Source of the DNA: Frankiales bacterium
GTDB taxonomy: Bacteria; Actinomycetota; Actinomycetes; Mycobacteriales; SCTD01
Assembly (NCBI GenBank): GCA_025465145.1
Contig: JAODNS010000136.1
Location: 1,069 to 65,068, forward strand
Length of the DNA stretch: 64,000 nt
Reading direction: 5' to 3'
The notes under the pieces are model-generated. The model saw only the letters and a program-made list of their open reading frames with translations. It searched no databases and was not told where the DNA came from. Shown piece by piece: positions 31,165 through 39,906 of the stretch. How positions within the stretch are numbered: position 1 is the first letter of the stretch; the number at the start of each line of letters is the position of its first letter. The translations under genes were made by a program, and so were the position numbers.

Positions 31165-34100
31165 TCAGGGGCCGACGCCGCCGCGGAGCTGCGGGTACGC
31201 CAGGTCGCTGATCACACGCGCGACGCTGGCCCGGTGCCAGCGCAGGCCCTGCGGCGTGCGGAAGCCGGCCGCGTTCAGCGCGGAGGCGATCGTCGCCAGC
31301 GAGGCGCCGTTCCCGTGCATGCGGACGAGCTCATCGCGTCCGTGCTGCGGCGTCACCTCCTCGCGCCGGCGCCGACCAGCGGGGGCGGCCGCCGGGACGT
31401 CGGTGCTGACGACGAACCGCCGGTCGGGCAGGGCGGCGACGAGGTCGACGAGGTCGTCCACCAGCCGCGCCGGGCTCCACAGGAAGCCCTGTCCGGACGT
31501 GCAGCCGAGTCGGCGCAGCAGCGCGAGCTGCTCCGGCGTCTCCACCCCCTCCGCCGTGGTGCGCAGGCCGAGGGTGCGACCGAGGTCGGCGATCGCGGCC
31601 GCGATGGCGAACGCGTCCGGGTCTTCGGTGAGGGCGAGGACGAAGCTCCGGTCGATCTTCATCGTCTGCACGGGCAGCTGGTTGAGGTACGCCAGCGAGC
31701 TGTAGCCGGTGCCGAAGTCGTCGATCGCGATCGAGACGCCGTGCGCCCGCAGCCGCTCCAGCGAGGCCTTCGCCACCTCCGGGTGCGCCATCAGGGTCGT
31801 CTCGGTGACCTCCAGCACGAGCGCCTCGGGAGCGACGTTGCGGCGCGTCACCGCGGCCACCACCTGCTCCTCGAGCCGGCGCTCCCCGAGGTTCGCCGCC
31901 GTGATGTTGACGCCGATGGTCACGTCGGCACCGAGCCCGGCCCGCAACTGCGCCACGTCGGCGCAGGCGCGGTCCAGCGCCCATGCGTCCAGCGCCGGTG
32001 CCTGCCCGGTCAGCTCGGCCACCCGCACGAACCTCGAGGGTGCCACCGGACCGCGTCCGGCGTGGTCCCACCGCGCCAGCCCCTCGACACCGACGACGAC
32101 GCCGGACGTGAGGTCGACGATCGGCTGGTACTGCAGGCGGAGCGTGCCGGCTCCGAGCGCCTCGCGCAGGTCGTTGCCCAGCACGAGCCGGTCAGCGGCC
32201 GCCTCGGCGAGCTCCTGGCCGAACAGCTGCGCGCGGTTGCGCCCGCGGGCCTTCGCGTCGTACATGGCCGCGTCGGCAAACCGGACGAGGTGGTCGGGGC
32301 ACTCGGGAGGTGACATGGCGATGCCGACGCTGACGCCGACGTAGGTGGCGTGGCCGTCCACCTCACCGCGCTCTCCGACGGCCGCGATGAGCCGTTCCGC
32401 GAGGGCGAGCACCTCCGCCTCGTCGAGCCCCTCGCACACGACGACGAACTCGTCACCGCCGAAGCGGGCGACGGTGTCGGACGGTCGTACCGCTGCGGCC
32501 AGCCGGTCGGCCACGGTCTGCAGGAGCTGGTCGCCCGCCGCGTGACCCCAGGTGTCGTTGACGAGCTTGAAGTCGTCCAGGTCGAGCAGCAGGACGGCCA
32601 CCGGGGCGGAGTCCTCCGCGCCCCGCGCCAGCGCCTGGTCGAGGCGGTCCAGCAGCAGCGCGCGGTTCGGCAGTCCGGTGAGCTCGTCGTACAGCGCGCG
32701 GTGGCGGAGCTCTGCCTCGATCCGCCGTACTTCCGTCACGTCGCTGACCATGGCTAGCCAGCCGCTCCCGCCGGCGTGCTGCAGCACGCTGACGGCCACG
32801 TGCAGGCGGCGGTCCGTCCCGTCGGGGTGGCGGTAGCCGAGCTCGTGCTTGTCCGGTCCGCTGCCCGACGCACCGGTCAGGACAGCGTGTCGAAGCGTGT
32901 CCGGGTCGTCAGGCGCCAGCAGGAGCGACGGCGTCGTGTCGTCGAGCACGTCGCGCTCCACCCCGAGGATGCGCAGCAGCTCGTCGTTGGCGAAGAGCGT
33001 GCCGCCGGCGGCGTCGATCGCCCAGATCCCCTCCTGCGCGGTCGCGGCGATGTTGCGGAACCACTCCTCGGACGCCTTCAGCGCCTGCTCGGACTCGACC
33101 CGCGCGGCGATGTCGCGGCCGAGGCAGACGATGCCGCCGATGGCGGGCTCGCCGAGCCGGTTGGTGAGGACCTCCTCGTACCAGACCCAGCGCCCGTCGG
33201 CGTGCCGGATGCGCAGCTGCACAGCCTCCCGTCGCCCCGGCTCGGCGACAACCCGTTCCATGGCCGCAGCCACGGCCGGTACGTCGTCGGGGTGGGCGAA
33301 GGACCAGCCGGACCGCCCGACGACGTCCGCCACGTCGTAGCCCAGCGCCGCCGGCACCGCTGCCGACGCGTAGAGCAGCTCTCCTGCGACGTCGACGACC
33401 ACCAGCCAGTCGGAGGCGTGCGCCATCAGCGCCTCGTGGCGGTCGGTGACCGCCTGCAGTCGCTCCTCCGCGGCGCGCAGCTGCGTCAGGTCCTGCACGA
33501 AGCAGGCGATCGACTCCGGGCTGCCGTCCGCGGCGCGCACCAGCGTCGCGTTGACGAAGACGGGCAGCGCGGTCCCGTCCGGCAGCTGGAAGACGCGCTC
33601 CCACTGGTCGGTGTCGCGTCCGCCGCTGAGGAGCTCGACGCCGCGCAGCTGCCCGTGCCGCTCATCCGACGGGTGGTGCAAGTGCTCCGTGGTGCGAGCG
33701 AGCAGGTCTTCGCGGGGTCGGCCCAGCAGCTGGCACAGCGCGTCGTTGACCGCCACGCAGCGCAGGTCGAGCCCGAAGATCGCTTGCGGCAGGGCGGCCT
33801 GCTCGAACCGGGCGCGGAACCTGCGCTCGCTCGCGCCGAGCTCGGCCTCGACCGCGCGGACCCGGCTCAGGTCGGAGGACACCCCGAGAAGGCCGACGAG
33901 CTCGCCGCTGTCGTCGCGAACGGCGGAGCTGGTGACATGCACCGGGAAGACGCGCCTCGCCTTGTCGTGGACCGTCCACGCGCCGCTGTAGACCTTGCCG
34001 CCGACGAGCCGAGCCGCTTCCTCCCGGGCGGACGCGTGCCCGTCCGACGGGATGACGAGGTCGCGCAGCACGCGACCGACCGCCTCGTCGGCGCGGTAGC

Positions 34101-34257: not shown

Positions 34258-34515
34258 CGTGCACCGCTTCCGGCCGGTCCGTGGCCTTACCGATGAGTAG
34301 CTCCACGAGCAGTCCGACGGGAGTGGCCGGGGCCATCCCGGCGGCCGCGGACACGGCCCGAGGGGCTGTTCGCCTCCAGCGGAGCCGGCATCCGTCGATG
34401 CCCCCTCCGTCGGCCTCTGCCCAGCGACCGCAACGGAGCACCGCGGTGCCGTGCGCGGTCAGGTCAACGGCGGGCAGGCCGAGCGACGCCGGCGGTCGCG
34501 CCGCCGCCTGATCAG

Positions 34516-35907
34516 CTAGTCGCGCGAGGCGACCAGCCGGTCGACCGCGGCCAGCAGCAGCTCCGCGACATGGGGCGTCTCCGCCTCGAGCGCGTCGGCG
34601 AGGTACCGGGAGCCGTCCGGGAGCACCACCGCGGGCACACCACGTGCCCGCAGCAGCCGGTCCAGCCACTGCAGCAGCTCGTCCAGCAGCCGTGGGTCGC
34701 GGCACGCGTGCGCAGCCGCGGCGTGCCGCGCGATCCAGCGCAGGTCCGCGACGCTGTGCCGCTGCTGCCACGGGTTCATGCGCCGGATCCAGTCGCTGCC
34801 CTCGGCCTGCCGCTCCAGTGCCATGAGCAGCAGCGCGTCGGGAACGGCGTCCGCAAGGCGAGCCTGCTGCGGCACCTGCCCGGCGTCCGGGCGCTGGCGC
34901 AGGCCCTGCACCAGGTCGGCGAGGCCGCCCGCGCTCGCGGCCCAGGCGTCCGCGCCGAGGGCCAGCGCACGTGCGTCGTCGGTGCCGAACGCGCGGCCGC
35001 CTGCCACCACGGGCACCCCGACCTCGTGTGCGGCGGCGATGGTGTCCGCGGCCGCGATGAGGCTCGTGGCGATCGTGCAGGAGAGCGCGAGGGCGGCCGG
35101 CCGCGCCTCCTCGAGGTAGCGGCCCAGGTGCTCGGCCGGAACGCCTGGGCCGAGGACGACGGCGCGTACGCCCCCGGCTGCCACGGCGGCGAGCCGGCCG
35201 GGCAGCGTGTGCCACTCCTCCGCCGGCGCGGCGAAGACGACGACCGGGCCCGTTGTGGGCAGCGGCAGGGACGCTGCGGCAGCCTCCGTCAGCGACGTCG
35301 CCGCGTGCTCGTCGGCAACCGACCAGCGGCCGGCGTACCAGCGCTCGCCGACCTCGCGCTGCGCCGGGGCGAGCACGTGCTCGGCCACCGACTCGGCCCG
35401 CACACCGGACAGCAGCAGCCGCCGGACGACCGCGGCGGTGGCGTTGCCGTCGCCGGCCGCAAGGGCGTCGACGTAGCGCCCGAGCGCCTCCGGCTCCGCG
35501 TTGCGGGTGCCCGCCGCCATGGGGGCGGACGCGGGCAGGCGGTGCAGCGCGAGGCGGGCGTCCTCGACCAGCTGCGGCAGGACGGCGCGCAGCTCGAGGG
35601 TGGCCACGCTGAGCGGGTCGGCGACGACGAGCACGGGCTCGGACAGGCCCAGCGAGACGTCGACGCCGAGCACGTCGTCCGGCTCGAGCCGGGCTGGTAC
35701 GCAGGCCCCGCCGAGGTCCGCGACCGCGGTGCGGACCACGGCGGCGACGTCGTCGGCCGTGGACGTCCGCAGGAGCGCCCGGGTGGCGGCGAGGGCCACC
35801 TGCGCGGCGCCGTCGGGGCAGAGCGGGTACGGCCGCTCGGTCGGGCGCTGCCGGCGGCCCGCACGCCGGCCGGCCTGCGACGCGGGACCGAGCTCGGGCG
35901 CGGTCAT
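34516..35907 (-). CDS. cobalamin (B12)-binding domain protein, CarH-like sensor module without DNA-binding domain
   Basis: ORF 34516..35934(-), trimmed to ATG 35905-35907, which overlaps the upstream stop (ATGA). Four-helix-bundle signature YVDALAAGDGNATAA...VGERWYAGRWSVADEHAAT (W-x9-EH). Rossmann part VVFAAPAEEWHTLPGRL...LALSCT...VPVVAGGRAFG. N- and C-terminal extra domains are unassigned. Confidence 0.7.
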   Translation of the reverse strand: MTAPELGPASQAGRRAGRRQRPTERPYPLCPDGAAQVALAATRALLRTSTADDVAAVVRTAVADLGGACVPARLEPDDVLGVDVSLGLSEPVLVVADPLSVATLELRAVLPQLVEDARLALHRLPASAPMAAGTRNAEPEALGRYVDALAAGDGNATAAVVRRLLLSGVRAESVAEHVLAPAQREVGERWYAGRWSVADEHAATSLTEAAAASLPLPTTGPVVVFAAPAEEWHTLPGRLAAVAAGGVRAVVLGPGVPAEHLGRYLEEARPAALALSCTIATSLIAAADTIAAAHEVGVPVVAGGRAFGTDDARALALGADAWAASAGGLADLVQGLRQRPDAGQVPQQARLADAVPDALLLMALERQAEGSDWIRRMNPWQQRHSVADLRWIARHAAAAHACRDPRLLDELLQWLDRLLRARGVPAVVLPDGSRYLADALEAETPHVAELLLAAVDRLVASRD

Positions 35908-38165
35908 GCCGTGGCCGAGCTCGCCGCGAGGCACCGGCCGACGGTGTGCGCGTGCCAGCGGCGGCCCTCAGGGTTCAGGGCGCCCTCGCCGTTGAGGACG
36001 GCGGCGATCGTGTGTGTGCTCGCGCCGTGCCCGTACATCTGGTGCATGCGCGCCAGCACAGCACGGTCCACGGCAGGACGGCCGCGTCGAGGACGAAGCG
36101 GCTGCGGCTCCAGCGGTCGTTCGGTGCCCGCAAGCGCTGCCGCCAGCTCGTCCGCTGGCACCGGCCGGGCGAACAGGTAGCCCTGCGCATCCGTGCAGCC
36201 GAGCTGCACCAGCCGATGGCGCTGCGCTTCGGTCTCCACGCCTTCGGCTATCAGGCCGAGTCCGACGTCGCGACCGAGGCGGACGACGCTCGCGACGATC
36301 GCCGCGTCGTCCGGGCTCTCCAGCATCCCGGCCACGAACGAGCGGTCGATCTTGAGCAGGTCCACCGGGAACCGCTTGAGGTACAGGAAGCTCGAGTACC
36401 CGGTGCCGAAGTCGTCGATCGCCGTACGGACGCCCAGCTCCTTCAGCGCCGTCATCGCGCGAAGGGCGGCCTCCGCGTCCTCGACCACGGCGCTCTCGGT
36501 CACCTCGAGCACGAGCCGGTCGGCGGCGAGGCCGCTGCGTCGAAGGCTCGCCTCCACCGTCGCGACAACGTCGGGCTGAGCAAGCTGCCGGGTCGAGAGG
36601 TTGACGGCGACCGTGAGCGCAGCCGCGTTCCCGCTCCACGACGCCGCCTCGGCGCAGGCCTTGTCGAGGACGGCAGCCCCCATCGGGACGATGAGCCCGA
36701 CCCGCTCCGCGACCTCGATGAACTCTCCGGGTGAGACCAGTCGGCCGTCACGGTCCCGTACGCGCACCAGCGCCTCGACGCCCGTCGGGCGTCCGGTCGC
36801 CAGCTGCACCACCGGTTGGTAGTGCACCTCCAGGCGGTCGTCCTCGAGCGCCTCCTCGACCAGCCGCTCGACACGGCGGCGGCGGTCCATCTGGGCGCGC
36901 AGCTCGGTCGACGCCATGTCGAGGCGCGCGCCGCCGTGGCTCTTCGCGGCATACATCGCCTCGTCCGCCGCCCGCAGCAGCTCCTCGGCCGTCGTCTCCG
37001 CCGTGCCGACGGCGAGGCCGGCGCTGGCCGTTACGGGCACCTCGCGACCCTCGATCTCGACGGTGCCGTTGACGGCGGCGACGACGCGCTCGCTGCGGGT
37101 GCGCGCCCCGGCCTCCGAGGTGTCCACCCACACGACGACGAACTCGTCGCCGGAGACACGCGCGACCGTGTCCGTCGCCCGGCTGACCCGGAGCAGGCGG
37201 TGCGACAGCTCGACGAGAACACGGTCGCCGGCGGCGTGCCCGAGGGTGTCGTTGACGCCCTTGAACCGGTCCACGTCGAGGAACAGCGCCGCCACGACGC
37301 CGCCGGAACGGGCGGTGTGCACGAACGCCTGGTCCATCCGGTCGAGCAGCAGCGTCCGGTTGGGCAGGCCGGTGAGGCCGTCGTGCAGCGCGGCCCTGCG
37401 CAGCTCCTGCTGGGCGCGCTTCATCGCGGTCACGTCGACGGTCATCACCACGGCGCCGGTTTCGGCGGGGAGCGGTGTGATGCGGATGCTCCACCACACG
37501 TCGTCCGGCGCCTCGTACTCCAGCTCGAACCGCGGCCGCCGGCCCTCCAGCACGTCGCGCAGGCCGATCAGCAGCAGCTGTGCCTCTGCCTCCGGCGACT
37601 CCCCGCGCCACAGGACCGACAAGTCGTCGCCTGGCTCGCAGGTCAGCAAGGAGCCTTCGCTCTGGTGCCGCATCGGCTTGTTCACGGCCAGCACCCGGCC
37701 AGCGCCGTCGACGGCGCAGGTCGGCGCCTCGAGACCGTCCAGCAGCGCCGCCGAGAGCCGCGCGGCGCGGCGTGCTGCCGCATCGGCGCGGGCGCGCTCG
37801 CAGGCGTAGCGCAGCGCCCGCAGCACCAGCTGCGGCGTCAGCTCGGATTTGCTCACGTAGTCCTGCGCGCCGCTCGCGAGGGCGTCGAGCGCCATCGTCT
37901 CGTCCTCGAGCCCGGTCAGGACGACCAGCGGCAGCTCGGGGTACGCGGCGCGCAGCGTCTCCACGACGTCGAGGCCCCAGGCGTCCGGCAGGGACAGGTC
38001 GACGAGCGCCACGTCCCACGGCGCTGCGGAGAGGGCGGTCAGTGCGCCGCTGAGGCTCGGCGCGTGCTCGACCAGCACGGGCACCCGCCCCTCCTCGAGC
38101 AGGGCGGTGACGAGGTCCGCGTCCGCGAGGCTGTCCTCGACGAGCAGCACGCGCAGTCCCGTCAT
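35904..38165 (-). CDS. REC-PAS-GGDEF-EAL response regulator with C-terminal recombinase-like HTH tail
   Basis: ORF 35904..39377(-), trimmed to ATG 38163-38165 (MTGLRVLLVEDS...). Canonical receiver (DVALVDLSLPD, VVLTG, YVSKS). GGDEF domain (VSGDEFVVV). EAL domain (GVEALVRV...EVTES...IDDFGTGYSSF...KIDRSF). Tail LARMHQMYGHGASTHTIAAVLNGEGALNPEGRRWHAHTV. Confidence 0.9.
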   Translation of the reverse strand: MTGLRVLLVEDSLADADLVTALLEEGRVPVLVEHAPSLSGALTALSAAPWDVALVDLSLPDAWGLDVVETLRAAYPELPLVVLTGLEDETMALDALASGAQDYVSKSELTPQLVLRALRYACERARADAAARRAARLSAALLDGLEAPTCAVDGAGRVLAVNKPMRHQSEGSLLTCEPGDDLSVLWRGESPEAEAQLLLIGLRDVLEGRRPRFELEYEAPDDVWWSIRITPLPAETGAVVMTVDVTAMKRAQQELRRAALHDGLTGLPNRTLLLDRMDQAFVHTARSGGVVAALFLDVDRFKGVNDTLGHAAGDRVLVELSHRLLRVSRATDTVARVSGDEFVVVWVDTSEAGARTRSERVVAAVNGTVEIEGREVPVTASAGLAVGTAETTAEELLRAADEAMYAAKSHGGARLDMASTELRAQMDRRRRVERLVEEALEDDRLEVHYQPVVQLATGRPTGVEALVRVRDRDGRLVSPGEFIEVAERVGLIVPMGAAVLDKACAEAASWSGNAAALTVAVNLSTRQLAQPDVVATVEASLRRSGLAADRLVLEVTESAVVEDAEAALRAMTALKELGVRTAIDDFGTGYSSFLYLKRFPVDLLKIDRSFVAGMLESPDDAAIVASVVRLGRDVGLGLIAEGVETEAQRHRLVQLGCTDAQGYLFARPVPADELAAALAGTERPLEPQPLRPRRGRPAVDRAVLARMHQMYGHGASTHTIAAVLNGEGALNPEGRRWHAHTVGRCLAASSATA

Positions 38166-38327: not shown

Positions 38328-39482
38328 GTGTCCGCCACCACCACCACCACCGCCGCCGACCTGCTGGCGCAGGCCGCTCAGGTGGCTGCCGACGCAATTG
38401 TCGGCGAGGACGTGGACGGTGTGGTGATGGCCTGGAACGACGCCGCCTCCCGGCTCTACGGCCTGGCTGCGCGCGATGCCGTCGGCAGCAGCGCCGAACC
38501 GCTGCTGCGGCCGGACGGCGAGTCCTCGGCTCCGGCCGCGGCACGCGCTCGTGCGCTGACGGGCACGCGGGTCGATGCGTTCGACAGCTGGCACGCCCGG
38601 GCCGACGGCAGCCGCGTTCCCGTCTCGACCTCGGTCGCGCCGCTGCGGCGGCCCGACGGGAGCGTCTGCGGGACGGCCACCAGCGCGATCGACATCAGCG
38701 GACGCCTCCGCCTCGACGCCGACCTGCAGGACGCGCGCCGGGCGCTGGAGCAGCAGAACGCGGTGCTGGTCCGGAGCAACCGCGACCTGGAGCAGTTCGC
38801 CTATGTCGCCTCGCACGACCTGTCCGAGCCGCTGCGGGTGATCACCGGCTTCATCACGCAGATCGAGCGCCGGTACGGGGGCAGCTTCGACGAGCGCGGC
38901 GAGCGGTACCTGCGGCACATCGTCGAGGGGGCCGCGCGGATGCGGGCGCTCATCGACGACCTGTTGGAGTACTCCCGGTTCCTGCGCGCGGACCACACCC
39001 GTACCGAGGTGCCGCTGCGGGAGGTCGTGGACGCGGCGCTCGGCCGGCTGTCCGCGGCCGTGCAGGACACGGGCGCAGAGGTCGAGGTCGGGGAGCTGCC
39101 CGTCGTCCTCGGCGATCGCGCGCAGCTGCAGAGCATGGTCCAGAACCTGCTGTCCAACGCGCTGAAGTTCACCGCGCCGGGGGAGGTCCCGCGGCTGCGG
39201 GTGAGCGGCGACGTCGCTGGCGCCTCCGGAGTGCTGCACGTGGACGACGCCGGGATCGGGATCGAGCCGGAGTTCCGCGACCGGGTGTTCCGGATGTTCC
39301 AGCGCCTGCACGTACGCGAGGACTACAGCGGCACCGGGATCGGCCTGGCCGTCGTCCAGCAGGTGGTCGAGCTGCACGACGGCAGCATCACCGTCGAAGA
39401 CTCACCGCTCGGAGGCGCGCGCTTCCGGGTCGCCCTCCCGCTGGCAACGACCGGAGGTGGCCCGCGTGGCGACGACCGCTGA
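38328..39482 (+). CDS. PAS sensor histidine kinase (HisKA of the phytochrome-associated type)
   Basis: ORF 38328..39482(+). PAS block [16 protein letters not shown]-box [23 protein letters not shown] box LLSNALKF, G boxes DDAGIGI and GTGIGLAVV. Confidence 0.9.
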
Positions 39483-39906
39483 CCTGCTGCAGATCCTGCT
39501 CGTCGAGGACAGCCTGCCCGACATCGAGCTCACCCTCGAGGCGCTCGAGGCCGCGAAGGTGGCGAACCAGGTGCACGTGGTGCGCGACGGTGAGTCCGCG
39601 CTCGACTACCTGCACCGCCGGGGCAAGCATGCCGACGCGACCCGGCCGGACCTGGTCATCCTCGACCTCAACCTGCCCCGCCGCAGCGGCCAGGAGGTGC
39701 TCGCCGACGTGAAGGCGGACGCGGACCTGCGCCGCATCCCCATCGCCGTGCTGACGACCTCGGCCGCGCAGGCAGACGTGGTGCGGTCCTACGACCTCGG
39801 TGCGAACTGCTACCTCACCAAGCCGGTCGACGTGGAGCAGTTCCTCAACGTCGTGCAGTCGATCGAGGACTTCTGGCTCGGGCTGGTCCGCCTGCCGCCT
39901 CCGTGA
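39457..39906 (+). CDS. single-domain response regulator (Rcp1/CheY-like)
   Basis: ORF 39457..39906(+). [10 protein letters not shown]...[14 protein letters not shown]...VLTTS...NCYLTKP with all phosphorylation residues present. Overlaps the kinase 3' end; an alternative GTG start is at 39466. Confidence 0.9.

Follow-up and report, generated by a model that had tools for sequence, protein, structure and literature searches.

A recombinase-type helix-turn-helix module at the C-terminus of actinobacterial GGDEF-EAL enzymes: a candidate DNA-binding output for c-di-GMP signaling

In a 64,000-nucleotide stretch of DNA from a Frankiales bacterium (hereafter the window), we identified two multidomain enzymes of cyclic di-GMP (c-di-GMP) metabolism, each combining GGDEF and EAL domains, that end in a shared module of about 55 residues, which is almost certainly a helix-turn-helix (HTH) of the recombinase type. 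Judged by sequence comparison, this C-terminal tail is a domesticated copy of the HTH core that serine recombinases have in their "recombinase domain". By analogy with characterized integrases and enzyme-HTH fusions, we propose that it provides a DNA-binding output, by virtue of which its bearers would operate as DNA-bound "trigger" phosphodiesterases; we assign this reading a probability of roughly 0.55. The window, with a GC content of about 73%, belongs to contig C250 of a metagenome-assembled genome (MAG) of 3.04 Mb that is about 90% complete.

Identification of the C-terminal module

Gene 1 (P0001; 31165..34257, minus strand) encodes, by its open reading frame (ORF), translation and Pfam matches, a 1030-residue protein with four PAS domains followed by GGDEF and EAL domains and the tail. 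Gene 2 (P0003; 35904..38165, minus strand) codes for a 753-residue protein of REC-PAS-GGDEF-EAL architecture (Pfam Response_reg, PAS_4, GGDEF and EAL in its translation), likewise with a C-terminal tail. A preliminary description of the window, made from its letters alone, had noted that the ends of these proteins align with each other. The peptides that it quoted are indeed the C-termini of the two enzymes: the minus strand translates as EEVTPQHGRDELVRMHGNGASLATIASALNAAGFRTPQGLRWHRASVARVISDLAYPQLRGGVGP followed by a stop across 31165..31362, and as RGRPAVDRAVLARMHQMYGHGASTHTIAAVLNGEGALNPEGRRWHAHTVGRCLAASSATA followed by a stop across 35904..36086. The tails share 23 identities in 51 positions (45%; BLASTP E 2e-11), and the same unit recurs in 134 distinct EAL-linked copies. 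For the first tail the quoted peptide is correct, but the conserved unit begins slightly upstream of the interval then given, taking in an Arg-rich arm. This arm reads RRRR in gene 1 (31363..31374, minus strand), where it precedes helix 1 of tail 1. Its counterpart before tail 2, taken by direct reading, is the basic segment RPRRGRP (36075..36095, minus strand), which holds an AT-hook-like RGRP core and presumably recalls the GRP(R) arms found in the HTH domains of invertases and resolvases. The HTH cores themselves are HGRDELVRMHGNGASLATIASALNAAGFRTPQGLRWHRASVARVISDLAYP in tail 1 (31192..31344, minus strand; residues 972-1022 of the gene 1 protein) and AVLARMHQMYGHGASTHTIAAVLNGEGALNPEGRRWHAHTVGRCL in tail 2 (35928..36062, minus strand), the latter delineated by the Pfam Recombinase match and by alignment to tail 1. 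Both enzymes display the pattern GASLxTIAxxLN in helix 2, RTPxGxRW in the loop and HxxSVARV in helix 3.

The earlier suggestion that the shared region resembles a recombinase HTH was borne out by profile comparisons. Tail 1 taken alone matches the Pfam Recombinase family (PF07508; gathering cut-off 21.1 bits) with 25.7 bits (E 1.4e-5, positions 10-54 of 102), and with 20.5 bits, just under the cut-off, in the full protein; tail 2 falls below the cut-off both alone (20.1 bits, E 7.7e-4) and in the full protein (14.8 bits). The related recombinase-like HTH family HTH_62 (PF20552; gathering cut-off 27 bits) is matched by tail 1 with 22.6 bits (E 1.1e-4) and by tail 2 with 13 bits, both below the cut-off. 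A profile-profile comparison of the EAL-linked tails with the modules of Resolvase-containing proteins using hhalign returned a probability of 98.9% (E 1e-17, 51 columns), the recombinase modules in this comparison having themselves been chosen as phmmer matches of the tail.

The match to PF07508 covers only positions 5-54 of its 102, leaving 8-10 residues before the end of the protein. The Pfam scan detected no HTH_7 match in either tail and no Resolvase catalytic domain (PF00239) or zinc ribbon in P0001 or P0003. In an AlphaFold2 (AF2) model built from a 10-sequence alignment, the tail folds with good confidence into three helices (16-24, 29-39 and 51-62), with a predicted local distance difference test score (pLDDT) of 86, and is not the disordered segment that had been considered as a possibility; the model contains helices only, and the beta-sheet half of the recombinase domain is absent. 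Given that the catalytic, beta-sheet and zinc-ribbon parts are all missing, the tail-bearing enzymes cannot recombine DNA. In a Foldseek search of the PDB with this model, the top match was the Bxb1 integrase (E 0.22, probability 0.85), followed by other HTH DNA-binding proteins; the list included the Sin resolvase, which superimposes with a root-mean-square deviation (rmsd) of 0.9 Å across 44 residues.

Distribution and domain architectures

A phmmer search with tail 1 against the whole library recovered 301 representative proteins (E<=1e-3), in which the module lies in frame and nearly always no more than about 15 residues from the C-terminus. Among the 111 listed matches of at least 140 residues, 85 (~77%) contain an EAL domain, which in nearly all cases immediately precedes the module; PF07508 is detected at E<0.001 in 72 of these listed matches and HTH_62, at the same threshold, in 17. 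A Resolvase catalytic domain is present in only 7 of them, and these are true serine recombinases, which bear 2-7 tandem copies of the module, each of about 50 residues; one WhiB-domain protein carries three copies. These tandem copies, together with the WhiB fusion, point to a self-contained module employed by DNA-binding proteins. The multi-module proteins are metagenomic (P0051, P0089, P0028, P0146, P0156, P0076 and P0083), and the recombinases among them are small and of unusual architecture.

When each prokaryotic species was scanned through one genome, 67 loci came to light, all of them in Actinomycetota and labeled as Frankiales, Frankiaceae, Mycobacteriales, Acidothermaceae or, in one case, Acidimicrobiales. 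Nearly all of the carriers are MAGs; the one cultured carrier is Acidothermaceae bacterium B102 (AP028633.1, locus L062), and no model organism is among them. The tail was found in 41 of the 61 genomes of the window's family, in up to 7 copies per genome that often share a contig, and in 28 of 151 genomes across the class. Orthologues of gene 1 retain it, with tails 57-77% identical, and tail 2 scores 92.7 bits against the tail profile in the genome search. The EAL signature DDFGxG occurs in 61 of the 69 tail-bearing genomic ORFs, at least one further ORF being EAL-positive by Pfam. Their architectures range from EAL-tail proteins of 330-390 residues that are devoid of a GGDEF domain to PAS/REC-GGDEF-EAL-tail proteins. 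Some members of the family were already flagged with PF07508 by precomputed Pfam annotation.

In related genomes, as in the window, tail-bearing paralogues often lie within a few kilobases of each other (G033:C30:68293-68744, G149:C2:70345-73838, G079:C5:2676-6154 and G120:C40:52005-56828), and in one pair the tails converge within about 80 bp; such neighbors suggest repeated local duplication. The window's own genome has a third copy of the tail on contig C59 (locus L004, 1240..1740, plus strand), which is fused directly to a short PAS-like fragment and is not accompanied by an EAL domain. It is frameshifted after GASLHTIAAALNAEGS, with the remainder, RTAGVRWSSTAVAQVLAAD, in another frame; this copy must be a pseudogene or the product of faulty assembly.

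Conservation of the tail and of the EAL domain

In a conservation profile of the 134 EAL-linked tails, G26, S28 and W49 are invariant, and there is next to no variation in helix 2 (GASLxTIAAALN), in the loop RTPxGxRW or in V54-A55-R56. In contrast to this near-invariant fold core, paralogues differ in positions 51-52, where helix 3 starts, as they should if the DNA specificity of the module diverges. At arm positions 4-7 Arg is the commonest residue (22-40 of the 62-77 tails aligned there). The tails have a mean net charge of +3.5, which is positive in 93% of cases; the mean for the EAL domain is -12.

The EAL domains of the two enzymes (gene 1, 31471..32175, minus strand, Pfam EAL E 1.2e-70, 238 bits; gene 2, 36162..36860, minus strand, E 1.6e-71, 241 bits) look apparently competent as phosphodiesterases from their residues. 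Those of the gene 1 active site are intact, and its EAL domain superimposes on solved EAL structures with a Foldseek rmsd of 1.6-2 Å. Across 52 tail-bearing proteins the motifs E-x-L-x-R, N, E-x-T-E, DDFGTG, K, E-G-x-E and Q-G are invariant or nearly invariant, and this conservation of the signature residues indicates that the tail sits on apparently active enzymes and not on degenerate receptors. The distance from the EGVE motif of the EAL domain to the GAS motif of the tail is 64-78 residues in 90% of cases. An AF2 model of the EAL domain plus tail (52 sequences) has a pLDDT of 94.6 and a predicted template modeling score (pTM) of 0.92, with values of 88-94 along the 30-residue linker; the pLDDT of the Arg arm, which is 63 when the tail is modeled alone, is about 90 in the EAL context. 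A Foldseek search with this model retrieved EAL domains only, and no solved EAL structure with a comparable C-terminal module.

Functional interpretation

The analysis shows that the tail is homologous to recombinase modules, how it is predicted to fold, that it is conserved and that it goes with EAL domains; we infer that it binds DNA, with DNA targets and a coupling to catalysis. The basic charge of the tail and the frequent Arg-rich arm also speak for this reading. As in the integrases, the third helix of the tail would enter the major groove and the linker before it would run along the minor groove, with EAL dimerization pairing two HTHs. Two outcomes may be envisaged: in the first, the enzymes would regulate promoters in accordance with c-di-GMP and sensor input, in the manner of PdeL and VieA; in the second, they would degrade c-di-GMP locally at the nucleoid. 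In the case of gene 2, the REC domain would take its signal from the adjacent histidine kinase.

Several observations weigh against DNA binding. Most of helix 3 (W49, S/T53, V54, A55 and R56) is kept across paralogues, which would fit a shared non-DNA partner equally well. The narrow EGVE-to-GAS spacing also fits a fixed intramolecular arrangement, and the gain in confidence of the linker and arm in the EAL context means that the AF2 model packs arm and tail on the EAL domain, so that they may not be free. No Foldseek match of the tail model has an E-value below 0.1, making the ranking of recombinases and other HTH proteins suggestive only, and neither tail 1 nor the tail profile, when searched against the PDB sequences, obtained more than chance-level matches. 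Finally, no candidate operator emerged from a reading of the 258 nucleotides that precede gene 1 and of the divergent promoter of gene 2, no repeat search having been completed; phylogenetic footprinting was precluded by the closest orthologue (L006) having a different upstream gene.

Some of these points are shared by an alternative that we take seriously but consider less probable, namely that the tail, though descended from a recombinase HTH, has lost its DNA binding and is instead docked to the EAL domain or to a partner protein, where it would serve in regulation or oligomerization and tune the phosphodiesterase. Such a role would suit the confident, ordered linker and arm of the EAL-plus-tail model, the constrained spacing, the juxtaposition of a basic tail with an acidic EAL domain and the largely conserved helix 3, and it would also suit the almost exclusive association of the tail with EAL domains, both among the long matches and in the genomes (61-63 of 69 ORFs). 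On the other hand, the nearest relatives of the module are all in DNA-binding proteins, namely the serine recombinases and the WhiB fusion, and the first positions of helix 3 do vary among paralogues. Moreover, the docking on the EAL domain is read from AF2 confidence scores only, and would be compatible with simultaneous binding of DNA.

Other effector families use Arg-rich segments to bind c-di-GMP. The Arg-rich arm, along with the conserved R42, R48, H50 and R56, might accordingly be seen as a site for a nucleotide or RNA ligand, such as c-di-GMP or pGpG, which would furnish a second sensing or product-handling site; we regard this as quite unlikely, as no known c-di-GMP-binding motif or family was matched in Pfam or NCBIfam and all the homology detected points to DNA-binding HTH modules. 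The notion that the similarity reflects chance or low complexity, or that the tails are functionless mobile-element remnants or assembly artefacts, could draw on the many spurious Ala/Arg-rich ORFs of a high-GC genome, the fragmented MAG source and the frameshifted third copy, but has a negligible probability given the pairwise E-value of 2e-11, the same in-frame C-terminal position in 301 representative proteins, the invariant G26, S28 and W49, the confident fold and the presence in 41 of 61 family genomes; indeed, the conservation data rule out chance similarity, disorder, a pseudogene or a mobile-element remnant as an account of the tail.

Returning to the tail as a DNA-binding output, a more far-reaching form of the proposal may be sketched, which we put forward as a speculation with the odds clearly against it. 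Here, the recombinase module would have been domesticated as the output of a lineage-specific phosphodiesterase family, with paralogues addressed to their own DNA sites via the variable start of helix 3, and with c-di-GMP degraded locally at those loci or transcription set directly by the enzyme. If true, this would constitute a chromosome-addressed second-messenger network of a kind undescribed in any organism.

Domain organization and gene neighborhoods

The GGDEF domain of gene 1 (32233..32697, minus strand; Pfam GGDEF E 9.6e-47, 159 bits) has the GGDEF motif and an RxxD site in the sequence RPSDTVARFGGDEF. In gene 2 the GGDEF domain scores 139 bits and its motif is replaced by SGDEF; the receiver (REC) domain of this protein spans 37824..38111 on the minus strand (Pfam Response_reg, 55.4 bits).

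Genes 1 and 2 flank a gene for a B12-binding protein (34516..35907, minus strand; Pfam B12-binding_2 and B12-binding), in which Pfam detects no DNA-binding domain. Its ATG and the stop codon of gene 2 share bases in the sequence ATGA. In two further loci, L021 and L031, a homologue of this gene also follows a tail-bearing EAL gene, a hint that the tail-bearing enzymes may have a partner that senses light or cobalamin. The spacer between the B12-binding gene and gene 1, which are on the same strand, is unusually long (258 nucleotides, 34258..34515).

Divergently from gene 2, the plus strand codes for a PAS-containing histidine kinase (38328..39482), followed by a single-domain receiver (39457..39906), both identified by Pfam. 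The same pair adjoins orthologues of gene 2 in 9 loci (L035, L037, L039, L047, L056, L059, L066, L068 and L069); the tail-bearing gene checked in one of these, L056, is a REC-PAS-GGDEF-EAL gene. The cassette is divergent in the window and co-directional with the tail-bearing gene in the related loci. We consider the kinase and the receiver to be the likely partner of gene 2.

Significance and comparison with known systems

How the many parallel enzymes of c-di-GMP metabolism in a cell reach specific outputs is a long-standing question, and fusions of such enzymes to DNA-binding domains, of the PdeL and VieA type, are among the few clear mechanisms for it. The family described here brings a different type of HTH, recruited from the recombinases of mobile elements, onto sensor-rich and apparently active phosphodiesterases, and it has multiplied within poorly studied, mostly uncultured soil actinobacteria. 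Should the tails bind DNA, their targets would directly map the c-di-GMP outputs of the carriers, and the family would show cleanly how a DNA-binding module of recombinases has been domesticated for signaling. The cultured Acidothermaceae bacterium B102 makes the idea of DNA binding testable.

Our literature searches turned up no study of GGDEF-EAL or EAL enzymes that end in a recombinase-type HTH, and nothing on PF07508 together with EAL or on HTH_62, PF20552 or the "recombinase-like helix-turn-helix". The architecture is visible in databases through its Pfam annotation but appears to be uncharacterized. The preliminary description had stated that it knew of no characterized example of a DNA-binding module fused downstream of an EAL domain, which is too broad in view of VieA and PdeL, both of them EAL/HTH fusions; what stands is that a recombinase-type HTH on an EAL enzyme appears uncharacterized.

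The closest parallels to the module itself are the large serine recombinases, such as the LI/A118 and Bxb1 integrases (PF07508 and the related PF20552). The tail has in common with them the signature G-x-S-x-x-x-I-A-x-x-L-N-x-x-G-x-x-T-P-x-G-x-x-W-x-x-x-x-V and a three-helix HTH preceded by a basic segment. In the Listeria integrase the HTH core of the recombinase domain resembles that of the resolvases, with helix alphaH occupying the major groove and the linker before it following the minor groove (PMC3783163). The complete domain of the recombinases, a four-helix bundle plus a four-stranded sheet, spans 102 positions, of which the tail corresponds to the first half only; further, they possess a Resolvase domain and a zinc ribbon or coiled coil that P0001 and P0003 do not have, the module instead being C-terminal on an EAL enzyme. 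The HTH of the resolvases and invertases (gamma-delta resolvase, Hin and Sin; HTH_7) is likewise a small three-helix domain with a basic arm for the minor groove. It differs in that the long RTPxGxRW loop, by which helices 2 and 3 of the tail are joined, is typical of the large recombinases.

Among signaling enzymes, VieA of Vibrio cholerae combines REC, EAL and HTH domains in that order (PMC4352251), which is the order of the REC, EAL and C-terminal HTH in gene 2, and in both cases a sensor kinase is encoded nearby. The likeness is one of architecture only; gene 2 adds a PAS domain and a GGDEF domain of the SGDEF type, and comes from Actinomycetota. PdeL (YahA) of Escherichia coli, which binds its own promoter in a c-di-GMP-dependent manner and thereby couples the c-di-GMP level to transcription (PMC5052742), unites an active EAL phosphodiesterase with an HTH, just as the tail-bearing enzymes unite an apparently active EAL domain with a predicted one. 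The HTH of PdeL is of the LuxR type and N-terminal, whereas that of the tail-bearing enzymes is of the recombinase type and C-terminal, usually following a PAS/REC-GGDEF-EAL core.

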